A DNA stretch of 64,000 bases from the NCBI GenBank assembly GCA_965262915.1, contig OZ253564.1, forward strand, positions 512,001-576,000, written 5' to 3'. The position numbers and the translations under genes are program-made. Position 1 is the stretch's first letter, and each line of letters opens with the position of its first letter. Positions 3,380 to 38,792 of the stretch are shown here, in pieces. Origin of the DNA: Candidatus Spongiisociaceae bacterium (GTDB lineage Bacteria; Actinomycetota; Acidimicrobiia; Spongiisociales; Spongiisociaceae). The notes under the pieces are model-generated. The model was not told the origin of the DNA, did not search any database, and worked only from the letters and a program-made list of their open reading frames with translations.

Positions 3380-3723
3380 AGTCGCCGGGCGCATACTTGT
3401 TCTTCGTCTGAGCGACACAGGCGGGAGGATGACCGCGGTGGTGCTGATGGTGACCGGCCAACCAACTCGGCGACCAGAAGCTCGTCGACGACGTAACCAC
3501 AGCCGGCGGGCAGACGTGGGAACTCCTCGACGGCTCGGTTTTCCAAGTGGCCGACCAAGCCCACAATCAGCTCCTCGGCCGGCTACCCGACATCGCCTGG
3601 ACAACTATCGACCGCTACCTGTCCCTTATCCAGCTCAGGCACTCCGACTTCGACAGGTTCCTCGACATACTCTTCCGGCTGAACCTAATCGAGATCAACG
3701 CCGTACTCGACGCCGTGAACTGA
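3380..3723 (+). pseudogene. Possible decayed CDS, function unknown
   Basis: Protein-like frame (LVDDVTTAGGQTWELL...INAVLDAVN*) preceded by several in-frame stops. Confidence 0.25.
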
Positions 3724-3849
3724 GCAACCTGGGCAGGGCACCTGTTTCGGACAGCGCTTACCCAAGCCCCAAAAGGTCGTCTGGCCGCAGCGGAGAACCA
3801 GCGGGGACGTGATGTCCGATAAAAGACACTATGACAACCCGGGCCCGCA

Positions 3850-18848: not shown

Positions 18849-19808
18849 CTACCAGTCCTCGGTCTCAACGAACAGCGGCGCGTACCGGTAGACGGCTGCG
18901 AACTCCTGCGCATCCCTAGCCGGGATCCCTGCTACGGATGCGGCTTCTCTAACCTTGTCGCGTGTATCCGGTATCGCGCTTAGGAGGTGTTGTACCTCGC
19001 GGCGGGTGAGACGAGGTATCTTGATCTGGCAAGGTTCTTCGCCGGACCGAGTGAACTCGAGGGTTCCTATCCTGCATTTGTCCCACTGGTGGCGGTCGAC
19101 TTCGGCGACGAGAGCACCGCCAACCGTGAGCATTTGCGCTCCGTCGGCGTGGACCATATGGAACATTTGATGGAACGTGATGTGTTTTTCTTTGGGACGT
19201 GCCGCGTTCCGTGAGCCGAGCGCTGCTCTGATTTGTTCCCGCAATATCCGATACGAGAACTGTGCGTATTCGGCCCTTGTACGCGGTTCCGACCGGCCGT
19301 CTCCGACCTCGCTTAGCCAGCCCTCCCGTTGATCATCAGGGGGCCGTTCGGCGTTGATAGTGACTATCAGCACGCTTGCCGAAGCGCATCGTCCTACGGC
19401 CTCTTCTATATCGGAGAGCACGCCCTTGTTGACTCGGCTCTCGTAGTCAAGCCATACGATGTGCGGACGGTTCTCAAGTCCTATCTGTGGTAACGCATCG
19501 CCAGTCCTCTTCATTACTACTTCGATACACGCTAGCGGCAGGTTGAACCTGACGCGGTCTTCAGCCCGTGGGTCGCCCTCGATGGTGATCATGTCGCAGA
19601 TCCCGAGCCGACGGTGGACGACCTGGAAGTCGCGAAAGTAGGTTGACCCCATCCCAACGTACCGGTATTTGTCAACGGGCATGAGCGGAGTTAGCCGGGC
19701 TAGAGCCTCGACGATCATCCGGCGCGACGTTGCTTTCGCAGGGCGGAGGGAATAGTCGACCTTCGGTCGGAAGGGTGGCATACCGGTCTCAGCTGATTTC
19801 GTCGGCAT
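18849..19808 (-). CDS. Putative methyltransferase-fold protein
   Basis: DYSLRPAK..RRM, YRYVGMGSTYFRDF, IVWLDY; overlaps the upstream ATPase. Confidence 0.7.
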   Translation of the reverse strand: MPTKSAETGMPPFRPKVDYSLRPAKATSRRMIVEALARLTPLMPVDKYRYVGMGSTYFRDFQVVHRRLGICDMITIEGDPRAEDRVRFNLPLACIEVVMKRTGDALPQIGLENRPHIVWLDYESRVNKGVLSDIEEAVGRCASASVLIVTINAERPPDDQREGWLSEVGDGRSEPRTRAEYAQFSYRILREQIRAALGSRNAARPKEKHITFHQMFHMVHADGAQMLTVGGALVAEVDRHQWDKCRIGTLEFTRSGEEPCQIKIPRLTRREVQHLLSAIPDTRDKVREAASVAGIPARDAQEFAAVYRYAPLFVETEDW

Positions 19809-21129
19809 ACAGCCGCTCGAATGCCTCTTCCCCGATCTGCCGGTTCGTGGTGAGGTGAAGAGCTTTCTTGAGTTCGTTCACGCGGGAAATATCTGCCGGG
19901 AACTGGATGCTGGTCGTCCGCGGGCGGGCTTGAATGGTCCGTAGTGTGTCCCGAGACCGCTCAGGTACTCGGAATCGGCCAATCGGCACGTCGCTGACCG
20001 GCGTGGGTTGCGCCATCATCAGCGCTGTCCGAACGGCTTGCTGCATCTTGCCGTCGCTCTCCTCGAACTGATGCCGTTCTATGACCAGCTCGTTGGTGAA
20101 AGTCGCGAATTGGCGGAGGACGGAACGCATCTTGCCTAGAGCATTCCTGTAGACGTCCGAAGAGGCGTCGATTTCAGTCTTTGTCGTCGTCCACGGTAGC
20201 GCGGCCGGAGAATCGGAAGCAAAGAACACAAAACCCCGAAACCGCGCGTATTGCGGATGCCACGCTGGCACATCGGGTCCGTCGAGCCCGGCCGTGCCCC
20301 AGCCGGTAAGTCCTGTGCGATCAGCCTTCAGCACAAGGCGGCCGTTGCAGTAAACGTACCAACCGGATTCGGCAACCGACCTCCGCTTCAGACCGATGCC
20401 AGCGATGATTCGTAAGTTGACGCTCTGATCCCCGGACAAGAGCACCGCGCTCTGGTTTTCGGGCCGTATCCCTCCGCCTACAAGAAGTTTATGTATGCGC
20501 TGGTCCGCCGGTTCCATGTTCAGTGAGATCGTCAGTCCCGCCTTGATCGCCTCGCCGTGCCTATCCGCGACATCGTGCAGCATCCTGCGTACGTAGCCGT
20601 CGTCGGCGAATGACTCACTCACGCCCTCGTGCAGATTCTTCACTTCGACCGTCGTACCTGCTTCGTCGGCTGGGGTATCGATGATCTCCATCGGAAACGT
20701 CCAGTCGCCCTCCTGCTCGCGCCACTGCCCGACATCCAATCCAACAACGAACCGAGTATGGGTTGTCGACGAGTCGACCTCGAAGTTGCGCCCGAGGCGA
20801 AAGACGGCCCGTTTCATCCCGATCCCGAACTCGCCTATCCGCGTTGTCGGATTGAACCCCGGCGCCCGGCCGAACCTGAACGCGTAGTGCCGGGCCGTGT
20901 CGATGTCAATGCCCCTACAGTTATCGCTGATCTTGAAGTGATCCCGATCAAGTATCACATTTATGTAAAAGTCGTCAAGGCCCCCGCCCGGCGTGCGGTG
21001 CGCGTAGGCAGCGTCGACAGCGTTGTCGATCAGGTCCAGGATCGCTCCGTCAATACCAATGTCCCGCACCAGCATGTCGACAAAGAATCCTCTCGTCGCA
21101 CTCGCGTCGGCCGTGGATCGTGTCGTCAT
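19789..21129 (-). CDS. GHKL/MORC-type ATPase (HATPase_c_3)
   Basis: ILDLIDNAVD, ISDNCRGID, IGEFGIGMK, GTTV, YCNGRLV; ATGA overlap with the dcm stop. Confidence 0.85.
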   Translation of the reverse strand: MTTRSTADASATRGFFVDMLVRDIGIDGAILDLIDNAVDAAYAHRTPGGGLDDFYINVILDRDHFKISDNCRGIDIDTARHYAFRFGRAPGFNPTTRIGEFGIGMKRAVFRLGRNFEVDSSTTHTRFVVGLDVGQWREQEGDWTFPMEIIDTPADEAGTTVEVKNLHEGVSESFADDGYVRRMLHDVADRHGEAIKAGLTISLNMEPADQRIHKLLVGGGIRPENQSAVLLSGDQSVNLRIIAGIGLKRRSVAESGWYVYCNGRLVLKADRTGLTGWGTAGLDGPDVPAWHPQYARFRGFVFFASDSPAALPWTTTKTEIDASSDVYRNALGKMRSVLRQFATFTNELVIERHQFEESDGKMQQAVRTALMMAQPTPVSDVPIGRFRVPERSRDTLRTIQARPRTTSIQFPADISRVNELKKALHLTTNRQIGEEAFERLYADEIS

Positions 21130-22220
21130 GGGCCAGCAGCCTCGTTCTCGTCTACCGCACGCCACACCGCGGCCGCCACCGCGCGGGCGAGCAACGGGGG
21201 CACGGCGTTGCCCACTTGCATATAGCCACTCCACTTGGTGTGGTCAACCCAGAACCAGTCGGGCATGGACTGGAACCGCCGCGGCCTCACGCACCGTGAT
21301 GACACGAGGAAAGGCATGTGGATCGGTCTCGGCGCCGTTTGGCTACCGCGGCCTGGCAACGTACCAGCGCGGATAGTGGGCGCCGGCCGGTCCGGGTGCA
21401 ACCTCAAGAAGCGGCTGATCGGCTCCGGAGTACCCGGACTCACTGATCGGAACCGCTCCTCCACAGCAGGCGCTTGCCTGACGCGGTCGCAGCCCGTGAG
21501 AGCTCCAGGGAGCGCCCGCGGACGCGCTCTGTCACCATCGTCCGGCGCATCGCCGCCGGAGCCGCAAAGCGTAGGAACTGGCCTGCCCAAGCGCGCCGTC
21601 ATGCTCCCCGTACAGTCCAAGCCGGCAGTTCTCAAGCAGCTCAAGATCACCAATTGCATCCCGCCGCCGGTCGGCGTCGCCGCGCCGGACTCCTGCGGCG
21701 CCTTGGGTAGCGGCAGTCCGCTCCGAGCGCCCACCATAAACACTCGTCGCCGACGCTGCGGAACGCCGAAGTCTGCAGCATTGAGCAACCACGGCTTGCC
21801 CAACTCGTAGCCCGCTCGCCTCATATCGCGATCGAACCCCTCGGCGATCCCCCGTGCCCCGGGCAAAAGGATGCCAGGAACGTTCTCCATGACGAAGTAG
21901 CGCGGGCTGGCCTCGCGGACGAGGCGGCCGAACTCTTTTGCCAGTCCGCCGGCGATCATCATCCTGCCGCCTGAGCCCACCGACCGAGAACGCAGCGCAA
22001 GGAGGCCCTCCGATCAGCACAGTGCAGGAGCGTAGACCCGCGGCGCAAAAACTCTGGCGTCGGCGGCGAGCACAGCCGCGTCGGGAAAGTTTCGAGCGTA
22101 GGCCCTAATAGCCCGCTCATCGCTGTCCACACCGAGGGCGGGCACGAAGCCCGCCTGCTCGAAGCCGAGCGAGAAACCGCCAGCGCCAGCGAACAAACCG
22201 ATGACGGTCGTATGCTCCAT
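21126..22220 (-). pseudogene. dcm: C5 cytosine DNA methyltransferase, frameshifted (decay or sequencing indels)
   Basis: LFAGAGG, GGPPC..FS, MENV, VPQRRRRVF and QVGNAVPP spread over different frames. Confidence 0.85.
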
Positions 22221-22281
22221 CGGAAACAACACTACCCGCTGTCCCCCCAGCCGCCTGCATAATCCCGGTATCACCTTCGCG

Positions 22282-28971: not shown

Positions 28972-29116
28972 TGTTTCCCCAGGTAGATGGCGGTTTCCGG
29001 CGGTCGGCGGCCGGTGGCGTGCATAACACGGTCGAATATACGACGGTTACTACTGGTCAACGATGGTCAGCAGAGACCCGGCTAGTAGACGATCTCCCGC
29101 GTACCGTGAACCCCCT

Positions 29117-29284
29117 ATGAGCAGAGTCCGTCCCCCAGGGCGCCCACCACCCACATATCCCCCCGGCCGCTACTGCACCACCGACAGCTGCACGGCGCGC
29201 CTATCCATCTACAACCCGACCGACCACTGCGGCCTCCACTCCCCCCGCCGACACCCACACAAACGGAACCGCCGAGGCTGGTGA
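29117..29284 (+). CDS. Small Cys/His (putative Zn-binding) protein
   Basis: C-x4-C-TARLSIYN-x4-C-x2-H, conserved in the paralogous block at ~4090-4210. Confidence 0.5.
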   Translation: MSRVRPPGRPPPTYPPGRYCTTDSCTARLSIYNPTDHCGLHSPRRHPHKRNRRGW

Positions 29285-29864
29285 GACTATCGGGCGGGTA
29301 GCCGCTGTCGGCGGCCGGTCGAGCCTCCCGAGTCCTTTCAGAGGTTGGGAATACGGCAGTAGGTGGGAGGGGCCGTTACGTGGGGGGAAACGGCCCGAGG
29401 TTCCCGGGCCCAGAACGCTGCTCTACCCGCGGGCTCGCCGGATGCGGGACACCATCGACCACCACTCCCGATCCGCCACCGGCGCGTCTTTACCCACCAG
29501 CACCCGCAGCGACACAAGCAAGAGCCGATATTGGGTGACCACCATTAGGCTGCCCCTCGTCGAGACCATACCAACCGACACGAGCCCCCAGCGGAAGGGT
29601 GCTCCGCTGCCGCCACCCGGCGAACAGCCATGGAACCGGGTTCCCCAGCACGCCGTTGGTGGCTCTCCCCCTCGAGGGGTTTCGGACGGAAACGACCCCG
29701 AAACCGTCCCAAACCGGCCCTAAGATCGTTAACTAACATAACGCAAAGGGCTGGGAGCCGTTTTGCGGGCTGGGAGAACCCTGCCATGAGCCGGGGAGGC
29801 TTGGCCGTCCTGGTTTGTGTCTTCTTTTCTTGGGCGTCGGCGGGTGGGCCTGTCGGGGGTGTCC

Positions 29865-29914
29865 ATGCCCTGCCATGCCGCGCCGAGCCCAGCCACGCCA
29901 CGCCCAGCCAAGCC
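29865..29914 (-). ncRNA. (GGC-NN)x10 pentamer array, candidate guide RNA
   Basis: Minus strand GGCtt GGCtg GGCgt GGCgt GGCtg GGCtc GGCgc GGCat GGCag GGCat; the array is seen directly, its RNA function is inferred. Confidence 0.6.
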
Positions 29915-29954
29915 GCGAAGAAGGTTGGCCCTGCGCGAAAACACTCATACTTAT

Positions 29955-30135
29955 AGGGTTTCCGGTTGGGGCCGGGTCTGACTCACGCGAAAACTGGCCT
30001 TTGGTGCCTTTCCCACGATCTGTCGACCTGGCCCCGGCTAGGAACCCTGAACCGGGGAGCGGGGTGACTTGATAGGAGCCTTCGACTTCTCCACCGTGAG
30101 TGTTCTGTCCGCCGCTCTGCCCGGCTCCGGGGGTT
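29955..30135 (+). ncRNA. IS110 bridge RNA (target-binding loop, then donor-binding loop)
   Basis: Two hairpins with internal loops holding CGCGAAAAC/CCCACG (match the target) and ATAGGAGC/TGAGTG (match the circle junction). Confidence 0.75.
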
Positions 30136-30166
30136 GGATTCTAGGCAGCCGACGAAAGGCGAGCAC

Positions 30167-31399
30167 ATGGCGGAGCAAGTTAGGGCCGATGGGGTAGGTG
30201 TGGTTGGCGGGGTGGACACACATCGGGATTTCCACGTTGGGGCGGTGGTGGATGGCGCGGGTCGCCTGTTGGGATCCGATCAGTTCGGCGCTGATACCTC
30301 CGGTTATGCCCAACTGGTCGCCTGGATGGAGTCGTGGGGTCGGATCACACGGGTCGGGGTGGAAGGAACGGGCAGCTACGGCGCTGGGCTCACACGTCAT
30401 CTTGCCGAGGCGGGTATCGGTGTGGTGGAGGTGAACCGTCCCAACCGCCAGCTTCGCCGGCGGCGGGGCAAGGATGACACCACCGACGCCGAAGCAGCAG
30501 CCCGGGCTGCTCTCAACGGTGAAGCGACCGCCCTACCCAAGACGGGCGACGGACCGGTAGAAGCCACCAGGATGCTGCGGGTAGTTCGCCGCTCCGCGGT
30601 CAAAGCCCGCACCCAGGCCGCCAACCAGCTGCACGCTCTGGTAGTAACCGCTCCTGAGCAGGTCAAACACCAACTCCGGGATCTCCCGACCCGGACACAG
30701 GTCAAGGTCTGTGCCCGCTTCCGTCCGGGCACAGCGCAGACCACTGCGGCATACGCCAAGCGGGCACTGCGGCTTCTAGCCCGCCGATACCAGAATCTAG
30801 ACACCGAGATCACACAGGTCGACAAACAGATCCGCGGTCTCTGCGCACGGGCCAACCCTGCGTTGCTGGCCGCCTACGGAGTAGGACCCGACACCGCCGC
30901 TGCTCTGCTGGTCGCTGCTGGTGACAACCCACGACGTATGAACTCAGAAGCAGCCTTCGCGGCCCTCTGCGGTGTCAGCCCCGTAGCCGCATCATCGGGA
31001 CGGATAGTGCGGCACCGTCTCAACCGAGGCGGCAACCGCCAAGCAAACAACGCGCTATGGCGGATCGCTACCAACCGAATGCGCACCGACGCTGCCACCA
31101 AAGAATATGTCACCAGACGCGAAGCGGAAGGAAAAACCCACACCGAAATAATCCGCTGCCTGAAACGCCACATCGCCCGCGAGATATACCACCTCCTCAC
31201 CGACCCGCCCCCAACACCCCACGGAACCGACCTACGCCACCGCCGAACCCAAGCCCGAATCACCCTCACCCGCGCCGCCCACCACCTCGACACGCAGCCC
31301 ACCGTCCTATCACAACTCGAACGAGGCCTCCACCACAACCACCACCTCGCTACCCGATACCAACACTGGCTCACCCAACAACCGATTTGCAAAACATAG
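30167..31399 (+). CDS. IS110 family recombinase with C-terminal XRE-like HTH
   Basis: GVDTH, GVEGTGSYG, GKDDTTDA (DEDD), GVGP, SSG..RLNRGGNR; RBS GAAAGG. Confidence 0.95.
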   Translation: MAEQVRADGVGVVGGVDTHRDFHVGAVVDGAGRLLGSDQFGADTSGYAQLVAWMESWGRITRVGVEGTGSYGAGLTRHLAEAGIGVVEVNRPNRQLRRRRGKDDTTDAEAAARAALNGEATALPKTGDGPVEATRMLRVVRRSAVKARTQAANQLHALVVTAPEQVKHQLRDLPTRTQVKVCARFRPGTAQTTAAYAKRALRLLARRYQNLDTEITQVDKQIRGLCARANPALLAAYGVGPDTAAALLVAAGDNPRRMNSEAAFAALCGVSPVAASSGRIVRHRLNRGGNRQANNALWRIATNRMRTDAATKEYVTRREAEGKTHTEIIRCLKRHIAREIYHLLTDPPPTPHGTDLRHRRTQARITLTRAAHHLDTQPTVLSQLERGLHHNHHLATRYQHWLTQQPICKT

Positions 31400-31498
31400 G
31401 AGCATCGTGGGTTGGGTGGGGTGAAATCCTTGGAATGGGGGTGAGGCCCCGCTGGAATCGGTGAATAGCCAACATCGCCGATCCAGGGAGAGGCCTCG

Positions 31499-32695
31499 AT
31501 GTCTGATGTTATGCAAGTACGGCTGCACCTGTCGGGTGTTCGCGTGATGAGAGTGCTGGTCGACTCTGTTGAGCGTCTTGAGGTTGAAGTCGAATCGGCT
31601 CGGGAGTGGTCGCGGTGCCGCCATTGCGGGTTCCGCTGCTATCGGGTGTGGGACCGACGGCCCAAGAGGGTTCGTGACCTGGGGGTGAGCGGCCGCCGCA
31701 CCACGCTGGTGTGGCGGCGACGCCGGTTCGAATGTGGGAACTGTGGCGAGCGGCACCTCGAGGACCACGACCAGTTCGAAGCTGGCCTAACCCGCCGGTT
31801 CGCCCGTCGCCTGGTGGCGGATGCAACGGTGATGTCGATTCGGGCAGCGTCCCGCCATCATGGGGTGGGGTGGCATCGGATCATGGGCCTTGTCCGCGCG
31901 GAGGCGGCTCAGGTGGCGCAGCGTCGCCGGGCCCGGCCGTGTCGTGTGCTGTTGGTCGACGAAACGTCGATACGGCGCCGTCACCGGTATGTGACCGTGG
32001 TGGCCTGTGGCGACAGCGGCAAGGTGCTGGCGATGATCCCGGGCCGTACGAAAGGGTCGCTGGCCAGGTTCTTTAGGGATCAAGGACCCCAGTGGTGCCG
32101 GCAGGTGGAGATAGTCGTGAGCGACGGGTCCCGCTCATATCAGGCCGCAATCGCACAGTATCTGCCAGCTGCTCGCCATGTGCTCGACCGGTTCCACGTC
32201 GTACGCTGGTTCACCCAAGGCCTCACTCTGGTACGCAGAGAGCTGCAGCGCCGCGACCCCCACCGGCGTCCCCCAACGTTCGAGCCGGATCTGTCCCGAG
32301 CCCGCTTCACCCTCCTGCGCCGGGCCGATCACCTAACCGAAGCCCACCAGGCGCACCTCGACAGACTGTTCGATGCTCATCCCCGTCTCCGCACCGCGTG
32401 GGACGCTCTCCAAGAGCTCTACCAGCTATATCAGGCAGACGACCTCGACGGGGCCAACCAGGCGCTCGGACGGTTCGCCGACCTCTACGCCACCGGCCAG
32501 ATACCCCAATACCACCAAGTCGTGGACACCATCATCGCATGGGGAGAACAGATCTTGGCCTACCACACCACCCAACGACGGGTATCCAACGGACCCCCCG
32601 AAGGGATCAACAACCTCCACCAAGTCCTACGACGCGTCGCCCACGGCTTCACCAACTACGACAACTACGCCGCCCGAGGAATCCTCGTAACATGA
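31499..32695 (+). CDS. ISL3 family transposase
   Basis: N-terminal CxxC..CxxC, LVDETS, VVSDG, LDRFHVV, SNGPPEGINN. Confidence 0.93.
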   Translation: MSDVMQVRLHLSGVRVMRVLVDSVERLEVEVESAREWSRCRHCGFRCYRVWDRRPKRVRDLGVSGRRTTLVWRRRRFECGNCGERHLEDHDQFEAGLTRRFARRLVADATVMSIRAASRHHGVGWHRIMGLVRAEAAQVAQRRRARPCRVLLVDETSIRRRHRYVTVVACGDSGKVLAMIPGRTKGSLARFFRDQGPQWCRQVEIVVSDGSRSYQAAIAQYLPAARHVLDRFHVVRWFTQGLTLVRRELQRRDPHRRPPTFEPDLSRARFTLLRRADHLTEAHQAHLDRLFDAHPRLRTAWDALQELYQLYQADDLDGANQALGRFADLYATGQIPQYHQVVDTIIAWGEQILAYHTTQRRVSNGPPEGINNLHQVLRRVAHGFTNYDNYAARGILVT

Positions 32696-32736
32696 CCCCA
32701 CACCGAGCGCCAGCACAGCCAAAACCCACGATGCTC

Positions 32737-33969
32737 CTATGTTTTGCAAATCGGTTGTTGGGTGAGCCAGTGTTGGTATCGGGTAGCGAGGTGGTGGTTG
32801 TGGTGGAGGCCTCGTTCGAGTTGTGATAGGACGGTGGGCTGCGTGTCGAGGTGGTGGGCGGCGCGGGTGAGGGTGATTCGGGCTTGGGTTCGGCGGTGGC
32901 GTAGGTCGGTTCCGTGGGGTGTTGGGGGCGGGTCGGTGAGGAGGTGGTATATCTCGCGGGCGATGTGGCGTTTCAGGCAGCGGATTATTTCGGTGTGGGT
33001 TTTTCCTTCCGCTTCGCGTCTGGTGACATATTCTTTGGTGGCAGCGTCGGTGCGCATTCGGTTGGTAGCGATCCGCCATAGCGCGTTGTTTGCTTGGCGG
33101 TTGCCGCCTCGGTTGAGACGGTGCCGCACTATCCGTCCCGATGATGCGGCTACGGGGCTGACACCGCAGAGGGCCGCGAAGGCTGCTTCTGAGTTCATAC
33201 GTCGTGGGTTGTCACCAGCAGCGACCAGCAGAGCAGCGGCGGTGTCGGGTCCTACTCCGTAGGCGGCCAGCAACGCAGGGTTGGCCCGTGCGCAGAGACC
33301 GCGGATCTGTTTGTCGACCTGTGTGATCTCGGTGTCTAGATTCTGGTATCGGCGGGCTAGAAGCCGCAGTGCCCGCTTGGCGTATGCCGCAGTGGTCTGC
33401 GCTGTGCCCGGACGGAAGCGGGCACAGACCTTGACCTGTGTCCGGGTCGGGAGATCCCGGAGTTGGTGTTTGACCTGCTCAGGAGCGGTTACTACCAGAG
33501 CGTGCAGCTGGTTGGCGGCCTGGGTGCGGGCTTTGACCGCGGAGCGGCGAACTACCCGCAGCATCCTGGTGGCTTCTACCGGTCCGTCGCCCGTCTTGGG
33601 TAGGGCGGTCGCTTCACCGTTGAGAGCAGCCCGGGCTGCTGCTTCGGCGTCGGTGGTGTCATCCTTGCCCCGCCGCCGGCGAAGCTGGCGGTTGGGACGG
33701 TTCACCTCCACCACACCGATACCCGCCTCGGCAAGATGACGTGTGAGCCCAGCGCCGTAGCTGCCCGTTCCTTCCACCCCGACCCGTGTGATCCGACCCC
33801 ACGACTCCATCCAGGCGACCAGTTGGGCATAACCGGAGGTATCAGCGCCGAACTGATCGGATCCCAACAGGCGACCCGCGCCATCCACCACCGCCCCAAC
33901 GTGGAAATCCCGATGTGTGTCCACCCCGCCAACCACACCTACCCCATCGGCCCTAACTTGCTCCGCCAT
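32737..33969 (-). CDS. IS110 family recombinase with C-terminal XRE-like HTH
   Basis: Identical to 30167-31399. Confidence 0.95.
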   Translation of the reverse strand: MAEQVRADGVGVVGGVDTHRDFHVGAVVDGAGRLLGSDQFGADTSGYAQLVAWMESWGRITRVGVEGTGSYGAGLTRHLAEAGIGVVEVNRPNRQLRRRRGKDDTTDAEAAARAALNGEATALPKTGDGPVEATRMLRVVRRSAVKARTQAANQLHALVVTAPEQVKHQLRDLPTRTQVKVCARFRPGTAQTTAAYAKRALRLLARRYQNLDTEITQVDKQIRGLCARANPALLAAYGVGPDTAAALLVAAGDNPRRMNSEAAFAALCGVSPVAASSGRIVRHRLNRGGNRQANNALWRIATNRMRTDAATKEYVTRREAEGKTHTEIIRCLKRHIAREIYHLLTDPPPTPHGTDLRHRRTQARITLTRAAHHLDTQPTVLSQLERGLHHNHHLATRYQHWLTQQPICKT

Positions 33970-34000
33970 GTGCTCGCCTTTCGTCGGCTGCCTAGAATCC

Positions 34001-34181
34001 AACCCCCGGAGCCGGGCAGAGCGGCGGACAGAACACTCACGGTGGAGAAGTCGAAGGCTCCTATCAAGTCACCCCGCTCCCCGGTTCAGGGTTCCTAGCC
34101 GGGGCCAGGTCGACAGATCGTGGGAAAGGCACCAAAGGCCAGTTTTCGCGTGAGTCAGACCCGGCCCCAACCGGAAACCCT
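34001..34181 (-). ncRNA. IS110 bridge RNA (copy 2)
   Basis: Mirror of 29955-30135. Confidence 0.75.
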
Positions 34182-34218
34182 ATAAGTATGAGTGTTTTCG
34201 CGCAGCCTCAGAAGGTTT

Positions 34219-34818
34219 CTACGGGAGCGGTTCGATGTCCTCCACCTCGTACCGGCCGTACTGTCCCGATTTTTCGGGTCGCCAGTCCCCAACCCCGACC
34301 CGGCGTCCCCCAATGTCCAACCATCGCAGCAGCTGGTCGCGGTCTACGAGTTCGGGGTCTACCTCGACGAGGATCGTGGCTGCCCACTGGTCGAACCGGG
34401 CCCGGGTACGCAACAGACGGCTCCCCCCGACTCTCACCCCGGTGGTGAACTGGCAGCTGCGGGCCAGCTCCTCGGCGGTGGTGCCCGGGCTCCGGTCGTG
34501 GTGGAAGCGCTCCACTGCTTCCACCACCAGCCCTTCCCGAACTTTGGGGCCGTGCCGCAACCCCCAAGGAGAGGGACGCCGCCTCATGAGGGCTGTGCCG
34601 CAGCTGCGTGTGCCAGTCACAAGGCGAAACTGAACACAGCCTCCCTCCACTACCAGCCGGAACGCCCACCGAGAGACAAAGCACGACGGATCAGAGCAAA
34701 AGCCATCCCACAAATCAGCGACGAACTCGCCCGAGCTGGCGGAACCGTCGAAGGCATGGGAACCCATCAACGCCAAAGACCGCCGACAACCCGTCCCCGA
34801 ACGTGGCATCACCCACAC
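34219..34818 (-). CDS. RAMP/Cas7-like Gly-loop protein of phage/MGE type; only the C-terminal ~120 aa look genuine (probably 5'-truncated)
   Basis: RTRARFDQW..VDPELVDRDQLLRWLDIGGRRVGVGDWRPEKSGQYGRYEV; originally directly upstream of the GGC-NN array. Confidence 0.6.
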   Translation of the reverse strand: MWVMPRSGTGCRRSLALMGSHAFDGSASSGEFVADLWDGFCSDPSCFVSRWAFRLVVEGGCVQFRLVTGTRSCGTALMRRRPSPWGLRHGPKVREGLVVEAVERFHHDRSPGTTAEELARSCQFTTGVRVGGSRLLRTRARFDQWAATILVEVDPELVDRDQLLRWLDIGGRRVGVGDWRPEKSGQYGRYEVEDIEPLP

Positions 34819-35104
34819 GTCGGCTTAAAACCAGGCTCGGGAAGAACCTCCGATACGGGACGGGTACCGGTCCGCCCGCGGCTTCCTAGCGTAGGAGGTC
34901 TGTACTCCCTCGAGTTCTGCACTCCCGGCGTCCTCGAGGAGATCGGTCGTGTGCCGATATTGGGTGACCACGAGGTCGGCCGCAACAGCGATACTGCCCA
35001 CCGAGATCAGGGCTACGTTCTCAGCGAACCATCAACGGCGAGACCTCAACCCGTTCGATATGCGGTGTCAAACACAAGATGCGTGCGCAGGAGCCGCTGC
35101 GTCA

Positions 35105-36334
35105 TCATTCGAGAGCGGCGGCCCACCGGGACAGATGATCCAACGGAATCCGGACATTGCCGGGTATTCGTCTCCGAGCCCTGGTGGCTCGCGCCTCGTC
35201 CTCGCGCATTGCATCCCGTAACTGTGAACTCTCGTTCTCTTCCGATAGCTGCATTTCCCATGCGCGTGCGAGAGCGAAGTGCCGTTTCAATTGGTGATAG
35301 TCAAGCTCGTTGGGGCGTCTAGCGCCCCCGCCGCACACACTACACTCACACGCAAACGCTCGGTCCACTTCCACCAACGAGGTGGCTGCAGCTGTTGGCA
35401 TATAAGCGTGCAGCTTCCGCACATAATATCGAGCAGGTGCAGCACCAGTAGCATCTAGTGTCGGCCAGTCTCGTGACTCGCTATATCCCAATCCGTTATT
35501 AAACCCAGCTAGCCCAACCTTACCCAAGAGTATGCTGAAGTATCCACCGTAGAGGTTCATAAGTTTACGGTTCCCACTCAGTACAGATATCGTCGCTCTA
35601 AGTGAACGAAGATCAGCTACAGACCTCGTACGCTCATCGAATCCTGGTACCCAGAAGAAGATCCTGGAGGAGAGATGATCTGGGACGCAGAGAATTGCTT
35701 CTTCAAGCATCGACAACTCGGTGATCGCAACGACAGGTGAGATTTCATTTGGACGATCAAGACGTTGAGCTGAAGCCCAGAGCCGTTGTGTCACCTCCCA
35801 CCAATCGCTTGATCTGGTTCTAGCCGCGAAGTACGGGCACAACAAGTATGTCGGGCTCTTCGCATCGCTTTCGGATTCCACGTTGCCAGACCCACCTTGG
35901 GCACGATCTAACAGGGACTTATAGCGGTTCAACTTCTCAGCTATATGTTCGGCTCTACCACCGTAGTCGCGTTGAAAGCTGATCATCGATGAGACTACTT
36001 CGTCGCATACGTCAGAGGAATAAAACTCGGCCGGGAACCGGACGCCCTGACCTTCTTGCTCTGACGGTCGACCGAGTCTCTCTACCACCGATTGACCCAT
36101 CGTAGATGCAAGGGTGTAGTGTGAGGCACGCGGATCTCTGATAACCTCCTGGAAGAGAGGGGTTCGCGGCTCAATGAAGTAGTCAAGTCCTGACGACAGC
36201 ACGAAGCCCGCAGTCGCGTCCTGATAATACGAAGCGATCGTAGACGGAACACTCATCACGTCAAAGCAGCGTCGGACTTCTAGATTACGAAAACTAGCTT
36301 GATCTGAGTTCCCGTAGGCGAGGCAATGGAGCAT
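35105..36334 (-). CDS. Hypothetical protein, possibly TIM-barrel/TGT-like, with C-terminal CxCxxC..H Zn site
   Basis: 409-aa ORF, lower GC, CECSVC..KRH; start overlaps the upstream stop. Confidence 0.7.
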   Translation of the reverse strand: MLHCLAYGNSDQASFRNLEVRRCFDVMSVPSTIASYYQDATAGFVLSSGLDYFIEPRTPLFQEVIRDPRASHYTLASTMGQSVVERLGRPSEQEGQGVRFPAEFYSSDVCDEVVSSMISFQRDYGGRAEHIAEKLNRYKSLLDRAQGGSGNVESESDAKSPTYLLCPYFAARTRSSDWWEVTQRLWASAQRLDRPNEISPVVAITELSMLEEAILCVPDHLSSRIFFWVPGFDERTRSVADLRSLRATISVLSGNRKLMNLYGGYFSILLGKVGLAGFNNGLGYSESRDWPTLDATGAAPARYYVRKLHAYMPTAAATSLVEVDRAFACECSVCGGGARRPNELDYHQLKRHFALARAWEMQLSEENESSQLRDAMREDEARATRARRRIPGNVRIPLDHLSRWAAALE

Positions 36335-36756
36335 CAGACGGATGCTCCCATACTCGCTTCCTCCATATTGGAGTTCACGAGTCGATCACGGATCCGTGTG
36401 ACCGGTGGCGTTCGGATTGCTTGCTGAACTATGCACGTTCTTTCAGTGTCGACGGAGACAACGCCGATCCGATACCGCGCTGCTTCACTCAGCCTCTCTG
36501 GGGTCACCTGGTGCACAAGGATCGCTACGTAGACGTAGTCTACACAGTATTGGTGCAAGAAGGCCTGCGCCAATAGGCGCCCCCAGTGTGAGAGCTTGGC
36601 CTCCACGGCAAAGAGCGCTGACGGTGTTTTTACCAAGATGTCCATCCGTGCTTGATCATGGCAGCGTACCTCTACATGACTGCTAGCCTCTGCTCCCCAT
36701 AGCTCGGCAACATCTCGTCGAAGGTCGGCAACCATCTCAGCCTCAGAATTGTACAT
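36334..36756 (-). CDS. Small PD-(D/E)xK nuclease-like protein
   Basis: EV..MDILV..AVEAKL..W..LAQA..DYVYVA. Confidence 0.7.
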   Translation of the reverse strand: MYNSEAEMVADLRRDVAELWGAEASSHVEVRCHDQARMDILVKTPSALFAVEAKLSHWGRLLAQAFLHQYCVDYVYVAILVHQVTPERLSEAARYRIGVVSVDTERTCIVQQAIRTPPVTRIRDRLVNSNMEEASMGASV

Positions 36757-37343
36757 TAGCTTGTCTCCGGTCCGTGCCGGACGAGGGCAGTCAGGCGCCG
36801 CTCAGTTAAGCGAGCGTAGATGAGCAGTATGCTGTATCCCATGGCAGCAACAATGGTCGCTGCAAACAGCGCCCAAGAGCCCTTCGATAGAGTGACTCCG
36901 TCGTTCCGGAGCGCAATCACCAACGGCACTATGAATCCTAGGAAACACAAGCCGCCAACGATAGAACATAGTCGTCGTGCCCGTCTCAGCTGACTTGAAC
37001 GCCTATATAGAGTGTCGAACTCGAATACGTTGAAGTGGTACGCAGCGATAGCGTCCAGAACTTCCGGTTTGTCAAAGGTGTATTTTAGTTCCGTCTCCAA
37101 ACGGTCTTCCTCGCTTTGCTGAAGGTATAATCGCCTGATGGGGATCATATGCGTGTACAGCAGCCTGATCATTTGTGATCCTATGCTGTTCCGGAGCATT
37201 CGTACCTGCTCGTTTAAGCTATTACCTCCTGCCTTCGTATCGCGGCGATCGTGTCGCCACATAAGCGTGACACTGATCACTGCAACAGCGGCGATAACGA
37301 TATCGTAGACGGTCTGCCAATAATTAGGCATAGCCTGCGACAA
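36756..37343 (-). CDS. Membrane protein (about 3 TM)
   Basis: One N-terminal and two C-terminal hydrophobic helices; coupled to neighbours. Confidence 0.7.
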   Translation of the reverse strand: MSQAMPNYWQTVYDIVIAAVAVISVTLMWRHDRRDTKAGGNSLNEQVRMLRNSIGSQMIRLLYTHMIPIRRLYLQQSEEDRLETELKYTFDKPEVLDAIAAYHFNVFEFDTLYRRSSQLRRARRLCSIVGGLCFLGFIVPLVIALRNDGVTLSKGSWALFAATIVAAMGYSILLIYARLTERRLTALVRHGPETS

Positions 37344-37349
37344 GCCTCA

Positions 37350-37889
37350 CTAGTCGGAGTGAACTATCTTGTCACGAATAACGGATCTGACTGCATAGTC
37401 AGGATACTTAGTGTATACATAATAGATCAGAGTCTGCAGAGGCAGGCCGGCATAAGTGTCCTTGATTCGTCTGATCTCAGCCTCAAGCTGAGGACGATTA
37501 CGAAACAAATAACGAGCGATACTTTTACCATCGTCGGTGAGTATGAACTGGCGCTCGTAGGATATTTCTGTCGCCATACCTGAGTAAAGCAATTCTTCAG
37601 CACGATCAAGTTCTGAATCAGTGAAGTTCCGCTGCTCCTCTATTAGGCCAGCCTCCTCTAGGAGTTCGACGGCCTCGTATACCTCTTTGGAGTAAGGCCC
37701 GTAGTGATAAGGCACAAAATCGAAGGTCTCATCGAGAGCTTCCCCATAGTTGCATTCTTTGTCTACGAGGAACAAGAGTTTCTCGAGGCGCGTGATTCCG
37801 TTGATTCGATTGGTAGCTTGTTCCCAACGAGTTGAAGTTGCCAGTAGCAAAAGCACCAGATCTGGAGCTATCAGCGGTTCGTTCTCCAC
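37350..37889 (-). CDS. SocA/Panacea (DUF4065)-like winged-helix protein
   Basis: GITRLEKLLFL, FVPYHYGPYSKEVY..L..GLI, YVYTKYP. Confidence 0.75.
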   Translation of the reverse strand: MENEPLIAPDLVLLLLATSTRWEQATNRINGITRLEKLLFLVDKECNYGEALDETFDFVPYHYGPYSKEVYEAVELLEEAGLIEEQRNFTDSELDRAEELLYSGMATEISYERQFILTDDGKSIARYLFRNRPQLEAEIRRIKDTYAGLPLQTLIYYVYTKYPDYAVRSVIRDKIVHSD

Positions 37890-38792
37890 AAGACGCTCCT
37901 ATCGTGACTAGGCTGCGGACTCAACCGAATGGTCGACTCGTGCTCGCTATACAGTACCTCGCAGGGACGCTCCGTATCCGTACGAGGTGCTAGACGGAGT
38001 TTACTCAAACGAGGTCCCGATCCGGGTCGGTTCTGACTTCCAGATATGTGAAGGAGTGGGGGAGTGTCCCCTCTCGAATGTCGTCCGTATCGATGGTCGG
38101 GGGAGGAGTTGATCAGCGAATGGTGGTACGAAGAGTGGGACTTCACCACTCGGCTGCCGCCTACCACAGCCGATTACCTGACTGTTCACCCCTGTTCGGC
38201 AACGGAGGATTCCTCCGCTGGGAGGGTTCAGGACGTGGCGGGGAGGAAGCAGACCAGGTTTCTCACGACAACTAGCACCATAGCTCCCCATCGAGGTCCT
38301 CGCGGGGTGGGTGATGATCCCGGACTCGGCGTGGAGCTGTCCGTCGGCGTCTACGGTGACGGCCGGGGCCGGGCCGCCGTCTACTACCTCGATGTGTCCG
38401 TTCTGGTCGATGCGGAACAGTACGCTCACGGCCATGCTCATTCCCCTTCCGTGCCGGTGGGTCTGAGGGTACCGGGAGGGTGTGACAGAACGGCCGACGG
38501 GGGCGTTGCGCACGTTGGGTCCTTCGTCATCGGACGGGTTCGTGCCGCATCGGGCGAGCGTTTGCCCGGATGGGGTTCCTTGGTAGGTTCGGCCCGGCGC
38601 GAGTACGTGGCCGCCACCGTCTAACAGGCAACCACACGGGGCGCAGAGCACTGCGTTATCACGTTTCGCCCCGGCTGCGCCTGCTAACAGCAGCGATCAG
38701 ATTGCCATCACTGGACCGCTCCGGTGGATAGTCCTGATCTTAGGGAGGCTTGAGTGGTCGGGTGGGTTCTGGGTTGGTGGGTGAGGGCTCTC

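Follow-up and report, generated by a model that had tools for sequence, protein, structure and literature searches.

A 64,000-nucleotide stretch of the genome of a Candidatus Spongiisociaceae bacterium (contig OZ253564.1, positions 512,001 to 576,000; hereafter the window), a host that we take to be a sponge symbiont in keeping with its name, carries a truncated vipr gene and its guide array, separated by an insertion sequence (IS). VIPR is a CRISPR-related system of RNA-guided DNA targeting described in 2026 (10.64898/2026.04.26.720920, 10.64898/2026.04.26.720927; both cited throughout from the accessible part of their text). The locus is laid out as follows, in window coordinates.

34222..34560, minus strand: vipr remnant, 113 codons corresponding to residues 86-197 of the 198-residue Vipr, with no internal stop or frameshift
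34219..34221, minus strand: vipr stop codon
29863..29917, minus strand: vrRNA guide tract, 11 YNNGG units, including 10 complete GGC-NN units at 29865-29914
34210..34217, plus strand: gene-side copy of the 8-bp target-site duplication (TSD) of ISL3, AGAAGGTT
29919..29926, plus strand: array-side copy of the same TSD
29927..34209, plus strand: ISL3 between gene and guide, with its transposase at 31499-32695 (Pfam DDE_Tnp_ISL3, E 4e-59)
29942..31410 (ends approximate), plus strand: IS110 copy in the left ISL3 terminal repeat, transposase 30134-31399 (Pfam DEDD_Tnp_IS110 and Transposase_20)
32726..34194 (ends approximate), minus strand: second IS110 in the right ISL3 terminal repeat, transposase 32737-34002
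34561..34971, minus strand: DNA unrelated to vipr, where relatives carry the 5' 85 codons and an HNH-like vap gene
29839..29862, minus strand: vrRNA 3' tail stub, with no predicted hairpin
28972..29838, no strand assigned: multicopy repeat family abutting the tail stub, with 26 matches in its own genome

The open reading frame (ORF) at 34818-34219 on the minus strand has 199 codons and ends in a Gly-rich tail, and only its last 113 codons correspond to Vipr. This remnant is 73% identical to the intact Vipr of a relative, locus L001 (E 2e-50), and matches SUSP1 Vipr directly (PDB 36PP_D, E 7.9e-8) as well as phrog_4652 (E 2.5e-18); no Pfam or PADLOC family covers Vipr. A 70-row family profile, made of L001, L002 and 68 near-full-length proteins picked from 150 listed homologues, matched SUSP1 Vipr at E 1e-43, the one other match having E 0.96. 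Furthermore, the remnant keeps the thumb arginine R138 (codon at 34410) and the GDWR of the G-loop (34290-34279). R138 is invariant in the alignment and D177, W178 and R179 are nearly so; the accessible text of the structure preprint names these four residues as contacts of the GGY RNA (10.64898/2026.04.26.720927). The fold was assessed on the intact L001 protein, 73% identical over the remnant. The AlphaFold model of L001 Vipr (pLDDT 97.7) retrieved CRISPR RAMP complexes in all of the top 28 rows of a structural search, with a Csm subunit as the best match (Z 11.7, root-mean-square deviation 3.1, 137 residues aligned). A preliminary description, made from the letters alone, had called this Gly-loop protein RAMP-like and proposed such a fold search; the matches to SUSP1 Vipr and the resemblance of the L001 model to Csm, Cmr and Cas7 RAMPs bear it out.

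When the insertion of 4,283 bp is removed, the vipr stop codon (34221-34219 in the minus-strand reading) is followed by 13 nt and then by ten perfect GGC-NN pentamers (29914-29865), as the preliminary description had reconstructed from the TSD. Their variable dinucleotides (NN) run TT, TG, GT, GT, TG, TC, GC, AT, AG and AT. We found four GGY-NN runs of at least five units in the genome (5,055,038 bases in one contig), three of them of five units, and the ten-unit window array is the sole run of more than five units anywhere in these 5.06 Mb; about 8e-9 ten-unit runs would be expected per genome from the trinucleotide frequency. A five-unit GGY run at genome position 577908 lies inside an ABC-transporter ORF and was taken as chance. 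We also examined 92 homologous loci (10 from genomes, 2 from relatives and 80 kept of 399 viral ones, many of these being near-copies). At least five YNNGG units were found on the strand of the gene at 79 of them and on the other strand at 2. Therefore, arrays with a 5-nt period accompany the homologues as well, and the earlier judgement that the array is unlike a slippage microsatellite stands.

Intact vipr genes occur in 3 of 28 genomes of the same family and in none of 32 other genomes of the order. These three loci, L001, L013 and L015, share one layout, namely an HNH-like vap, vipr, one array and a tail. The cassettes (L013:1163-2260, L001:5354-6470, L015:1166-2280) have vap overlapping vipr and a hairpin tail; that of L013, with 16 perfect units, is flanked by an integrase fragment on one side and an AlpA gene on the other, both of which are found near the cassette in two of the three loci. 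The CxxC, HH and CxxCH motifs of the relatives' vap proteins are invariant, and sequence and fold searches alike matched these proteins best to HNH domains (Cas5-HNH, phage HNH and McrA; E 0.012-0.24, with E 0.021 in one search); Pfam HNH was found in two of six vap proteins (E 0.024). In the tree, the window protein groups with the intact relatives with 99/97 support, inside a 100/100 clade of eight rows. A pattern scan of JGI metagenome contigs returned no close relative.

Window guide positions 29870-29894 share a run of five NN units with L015:2149-2173, the two genes differing by a synonymous divergence (dS) of about 1.0; with 180 other tracts, the window guide has no more than three NN units in a row in common. 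Shared ancestry, array exchange or a common target could explain this run. At L002:5010-5406, from a Caldilineaceae relative, four tracts with 19, 15, 19 and 20 YNNNG units form a staggered array upstream of vap-vipr, and the viral locus L045 has pentamer arrays on both sides of vap-vipr (2326-2570 and 3600-3800), the upstream one on the opposite strand.

The preliminary description had noted that the N-terminus looked lost. Residues 1-85 are absent from the genome, and the 86 ORF codons upstream of the remnant have no Vipr homology. In the L001 model, this loss takes away the first strand of the RRM, the bundle of helices and the greater part of helix 1, and the positions of SUSP1 H17, K33, R39, E71/M72 and K82 map to the missing part. 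The genome holds only two partial Vipr matches, the window remnant and one from residue 77 at 1491575, and no vap orthologue was found in it. The replacing DNA at 34561..34971 shows no homology to Vipr or vap and is single-copy in the genome; a 28-bp weak match in 1 of 28 family genomes was all that we found of it elsewhere. Its first 19 bp (34953-34971) repeat a motif that belongs to the repeat family lying downstream and is present again at 29524-29542. On the other side, this multicopy repeat starts at about 29843-29838, 20-25 nt 3' of the array; it has short matches only, in 4 of 28 relatives, and part of it flanks the second vipr remnant too. The 80 nt 3' of the window array are predicted to fold no better than shuffles (z-score +0.40), and the tails of four relatives gave z-scores of -2.40, -4.16, -3.71 and -0.96, the last being that of L001. 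The ratio of nonsynonymous to synonymous divergence (dN/dS) of the remnant to four relatives was 0.16-0.26, and 0.09-0.22 among those relatives.

The second remnant of the host genome (genome 1491575-1491937, in locus L012 at 1491575-1492100) comes with 14 YNNNG units and a hairpin tail that looks intact (z-score -3.7), and would be a better candidate for a solo guide than the window locus. A further remnant, L018, is frameshifted and IS-broken. The three remnants, from two genomes, start at codons 77 (L012:1495), 86 (window 34560) and about 88-89 (L018:1390), and those of the window and L012 have different closest relatives in the tree. A self-targeting scar as the cause of these breakpoints was considered and dropped: it finds no support because none of twelve clade guides matched the region of codons 77-89.

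All contigs of 4 of the 17 listed sequencing runs were compared with the window. Run X2, possibly the source sample, matched it without difference and bridged both IS junctions; run X1 matched 34181-38398 and was 2 letters short of the bridging rule. In run X6, a contig of depth 2.2 lacks the IS and places 131 letters between 34394-34210 and 29853-29618, compared to 65 in the IS-removed window. On the array side, the match is taken up again within the tail stub, which is consistent with a fuller tail but no proof of one. A second contig of this run extends across the truncation point with a single difference. Since X6 thus provides both the truncation point and an IS-free joint, the truncation probably preceded the insertion, assuming that the two contigs come from the same strain. 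A contig of run X7 contains an IS-free joint implying nine units with the first NN changed, the short side of the joint being 24 letters for a caution limit of 30. No RNA run was listed among the sequencing runs holding this DNA, a result that bears in neither direction on expression.

In the SUSP1 and P. fulva systems, one Vipr binds each repeat and the NN pairs read double-stranded DNA with a one-base skip, resulting in transcriptional silencing; predicted nucleases are confined to types III and V, both located in defence islands, according to the accessible text (10.64898/2026.04.26.720920, 10.64898/2026.04.26.720927). The preliminary description had proposed a candidate system in which one subunit binds each pentamer and the NN pairs together read a gapped target, and had pointed to reported phage VIPR systems as a match. 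Both the system and the mode of reading are found in these preprints; the identification as VIPR stands and the claim to novelty is reduced, as VIPR itself is already published. The window locus resembles SUSP1 VIPR in Vipr sequence, RAMP fold, thumb arginine and G-loop D-W-R, and also in its guide tract, which lies next to the gene on the same strand, numbers 11 YNNGG units where 9-16 have been published, and has no CRISPR array adjoining it. It differs in its truncated gene, the absence of vap, the IS between gene and guide, the missing tail hairpin, a location in a chromosomal island rather than a phage, and the lack of a target in our searches. Furthermore, the SUSP1 tail is a pseudoknot, whereas the tails of the window's relatives fold as a long hairpin. 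The defence-island setting and the intact relatives with an HNH-like vap and one vrRNA recall type III, to which the clade probably belongs, an assignment made by elimination from the text and the legend of fig. S21.

By analogy with SUSP1 and P. fulva, the ancestral locus, with the HNH-like vap, vipr, one vrRNA and hairpin tail still present in relatives, would have produced a Vipr that polymerises with one subunit per pentamer, each holding a GGY, so that the NN pairs could read about 29-32 bp of double-stranded DNA with every third base skipped, leaving it to the HNH partner to nick or cut the targeted phage or mobile element.

The guide was used to search host and viral DNA for the gapped pattern, as the preliminary description had suggested, and nothing above chance was found. 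Scans assumed a 1-nt skip unless stated. Because scans of sequence collections accepted exact matches only, natural targets at 80-90% identity would be missed there. The own genome had 178, 24, 4 and 0 sites at 14, 15, 16 and 17 of 20 bases, compared to shuffle means of 160, 22, 2.0 and 0.3. The best score, 16/20 (4 sites), was reached 0-4 times by shuffles in one test and 2.0 times on average (maximum 6) in another; skips of 0, 2 and 3 gave nothing better apart from the array itself. In 29 family genomes with up to three mismatches, we found one site at 17/20 versus two control sites. The exact 20-base pattern was absent from the viral contigs and from the metagenome contigs. Eight-unit sub-patterns gave 6 and 31 viral matches, and the best extended viral matches, at 19/20, fell in three unrelated groups of AT-rich contigs (32-40% GC), roughly what chance extension of some 26 independent matches would yield. 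One of the viral loci, L149, has a codon-aligned 19/20 match in what looks by its motif like a phage replication gene; it was not accepted as a target. The nine-unit X7 guide had no viral match and one host site at 16/18, equalled in 3 of 40 shuffles, and the intact L013 guide (12 3' units, 3 mismatches) matched in 0 of 201 genomes. None of the twelve clade guides scored above shuffles against the host genome or the relatives' regions, and their best matches to six vap-vipr genes, compared without shuffles, were far below 80%. Viruses of the host habitat may be poorly sampled in these searches.

In both the second remnant L012 and the intact L015, the G-loop has N177 and the first G of the array units is variable. 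That these arrays are decayed was rejected, as they fit YNNNG in 14/14 and 15/17 units, respectively. Scanning for the N form yielded 20 loci from viruses (L161-L180), of which 12 were Vipr and 8 were dropped; the D and N sets were collected with different patterns. Tracts of at least seven YNNNG units were present at 76 of 91 D177 loci, with G at the first-G position in 2046 of 2298 units, and at 13 of 14 N177 loci, with G in only 281 of 499. First-G occupancy was below 70% at 10 of 13 N177 loci versus 1 of 76 D177 loci; G fills nearly every first position at two N177 loci, and the ten relaxed ones include two near-copies. The N177 state requires nine changes on the tree, at least six of them forced by supported branches, several N rows being long branches. 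D177 binds G1 in the cryo-electron microscopy structure, and the accessible text of the structure preprint makes no mention of asparagine or YNNNG, which its supplements may hold (10.64898/2026.04.26.720927). Elsewhere, YNNNG arrays are listed without a residue rule (10.64898/2026.04.26.720920), and non-canonical motifs are listed in the accessible text of a further preprint (10.64898/2026.10.21.760802); the supplements of either may hold such a rule. The two remnants of the host genome differ accordingly, the window combining GGC with D177 and L012 combining NGC with N177.

The surroundings of the locus form a defence-island setting, with restriction-modification, methylase, ATPase, HEPN/MNT and PDC-type/PADLOC candidate genes at 4-38 kb and many IS. 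No cas family was found among 31 window ORFs (1-40.6 kb) or the 7 ORFs of another Pfam scan, and no Rfam family in the window. The nearest CRISPR-like repeat candidates lie megabases away, which agrees with the preliminary description; a crude CRISPR-like scan had flagged regularly spaced repeat clusters at genome positions 3308806, 3561222 and 4165761. Upstream of the vipr remnant, a low-GC cluster of four genes (35105-37889; 409, 140, 195 and 179 aa) ends with a 179-aa protein resembling Panacea/PDC-M19A; no family of Pfam, PHROG or PADLOC matches the 409-aa protein, and the cluster is possibly an undescribed defence operon. At 18852-22274, a broken C5 methylase gene is followed by a GHKL ATPase gene and a Methyltransf_35 gene.

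An ISL3 without IS110 at genome 689267-690610 has ends matching those of the window copy. The two IS110 copies of the window are 100% identical and constitute an inverted repeat of 1483 nt. IS110 uses one fixed position in the ISL3 terminal repeats, as also seen at genome 3638399 and 4422080, and here occupies both ends, so that ISL3 is bracketed by inverted IS110 copies. IS4321 and IS5075, of the IS110 family, insert into the terminal inverted repeats of Tn21. The window IS110 is similar in occupying the same position in each terminal repeat and differs in that its target is the ISL3 end; a title-level literature search found no paper title on this pairing.

We consider it highly probable that the window contains a decayed chromosomal VIPR locus of the HNH-partnered clade, most likely inactive. 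Such a system presumably cannot work because vap and codons 1-85 are gone, the IS parts the guide from its operon and the predicted tail hairpin is missing, in line with the earlier suggestion that this copy may be dead. We infer that vap and the 5' codons were lost first and that ISL3 with its two IS110 copies was inserted later. Several observations weigh against this interpretation. The perfect array, the open remnant and its dN/dS suggest that the decay is recent or that the pieces are still under some selection. The argument from the tail is a folding prediction, and that of the intact L001 itself folds no better than shuffles (z-score -0.96). The HNH assignment of vap is weak, with no match reaching E 0.001, and the type assignment leans on figure legends. 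Neither the window guide nor those of intact relatives yielded a target, and the anti-phage role of the clade is putative. Finally, with the genome at 96% completeness, a third vipr copy, this one intact, may have escaped detection.

Solo vrRNAs of E. coli F5 satellites and SUSP1-family phages arise by vipr-vap deletion, keep a conserved tail and redirect the Vipr of an incoming phage or element, with REP, vipr, vrRNA and satellites as targets, as outlined in the accessible text (10.64898/2026.10.15.759431). The window guide could likewise be transcribed and redirect an incoming Vipr although its protein gene is lost; it too is a guide whose genome has no intact vipr, its array is perfect, and the IS-free X6 and X7 alleles have different guide regions, that of X6 (131 versus 65 letters) perhaps with a full tail. 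In contrast to the solo guides as published, however, the window allele has no tail hairpin, retains half a gene and has no target that we could find: no decoy in the host at 14-17/20 beyond shuffles, and no match above shuffles to the vipr and vap genes of six relatives or their surroundings. No sigma-70-like promoter was found in 29500-35300 either, a weak test. Solo function of the window guide is thus unlikely. It is very unlikely that a C-terminal half-protein is made and caps Vipr filaments as an inhibitor, the truncation itself being selected. The frame is open for 199 codons, and the clustered starts of three remnants, two of them with different closest relatives, would fit; but a stable fold is improbable because half of the RRM sheet is missing, as judged from the secondary structure of the L001 model, the 86 codons ahead of the remnant come from unrelated DNA, L018 has both a frameshift and an IS break, and the cases number only three.

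A broader possibility, which we regard as doubtful, is that the breakage is a repeated, selected conversion rather than plain decay: a cut at codons 77-89 would eliminate the nuclease, and the guide and thumb/G-loop half-protein left over would redirect or cap the Vipr filaments of incoming elements; the full tail would persist in IS-free strains, and the two remnants would represent two scaffold codes (GGC/D177 and NGC/N177). The least probable explanation is a microsatellite formed by slippage that merely adjoins a fragment of an unrelated gene, or else an artefact of assembly across the inverted IS110 copies, even though the genome is high in GC and rich in IS and an assembler might be misled by 1483 nt of perfect inverted repeat. 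The match to SUSP1 Vipr, the uniqueness of the array in the genome and the strand bias at homologous loci (79 versus 2 of 92) refute the former, as do the matching TSDs, the X2 contigs across both IS junctions and the X6 contig joining gene and array without the IS for the latter.

The covariation of D177N with a relaxed G1 constitutes a one-residue, testable rule for the RNA scaffold code of Vipr. Furthermore, DNA cutting by VIPR has been predicted from nuclease vaps with no test reported (10.64898/2026.04.26.720920), and the compact cassettes of L001, L013 and L015 would lend themselves to such a test. The window locus itself shows steps of VIPR loss in a host chromosome.

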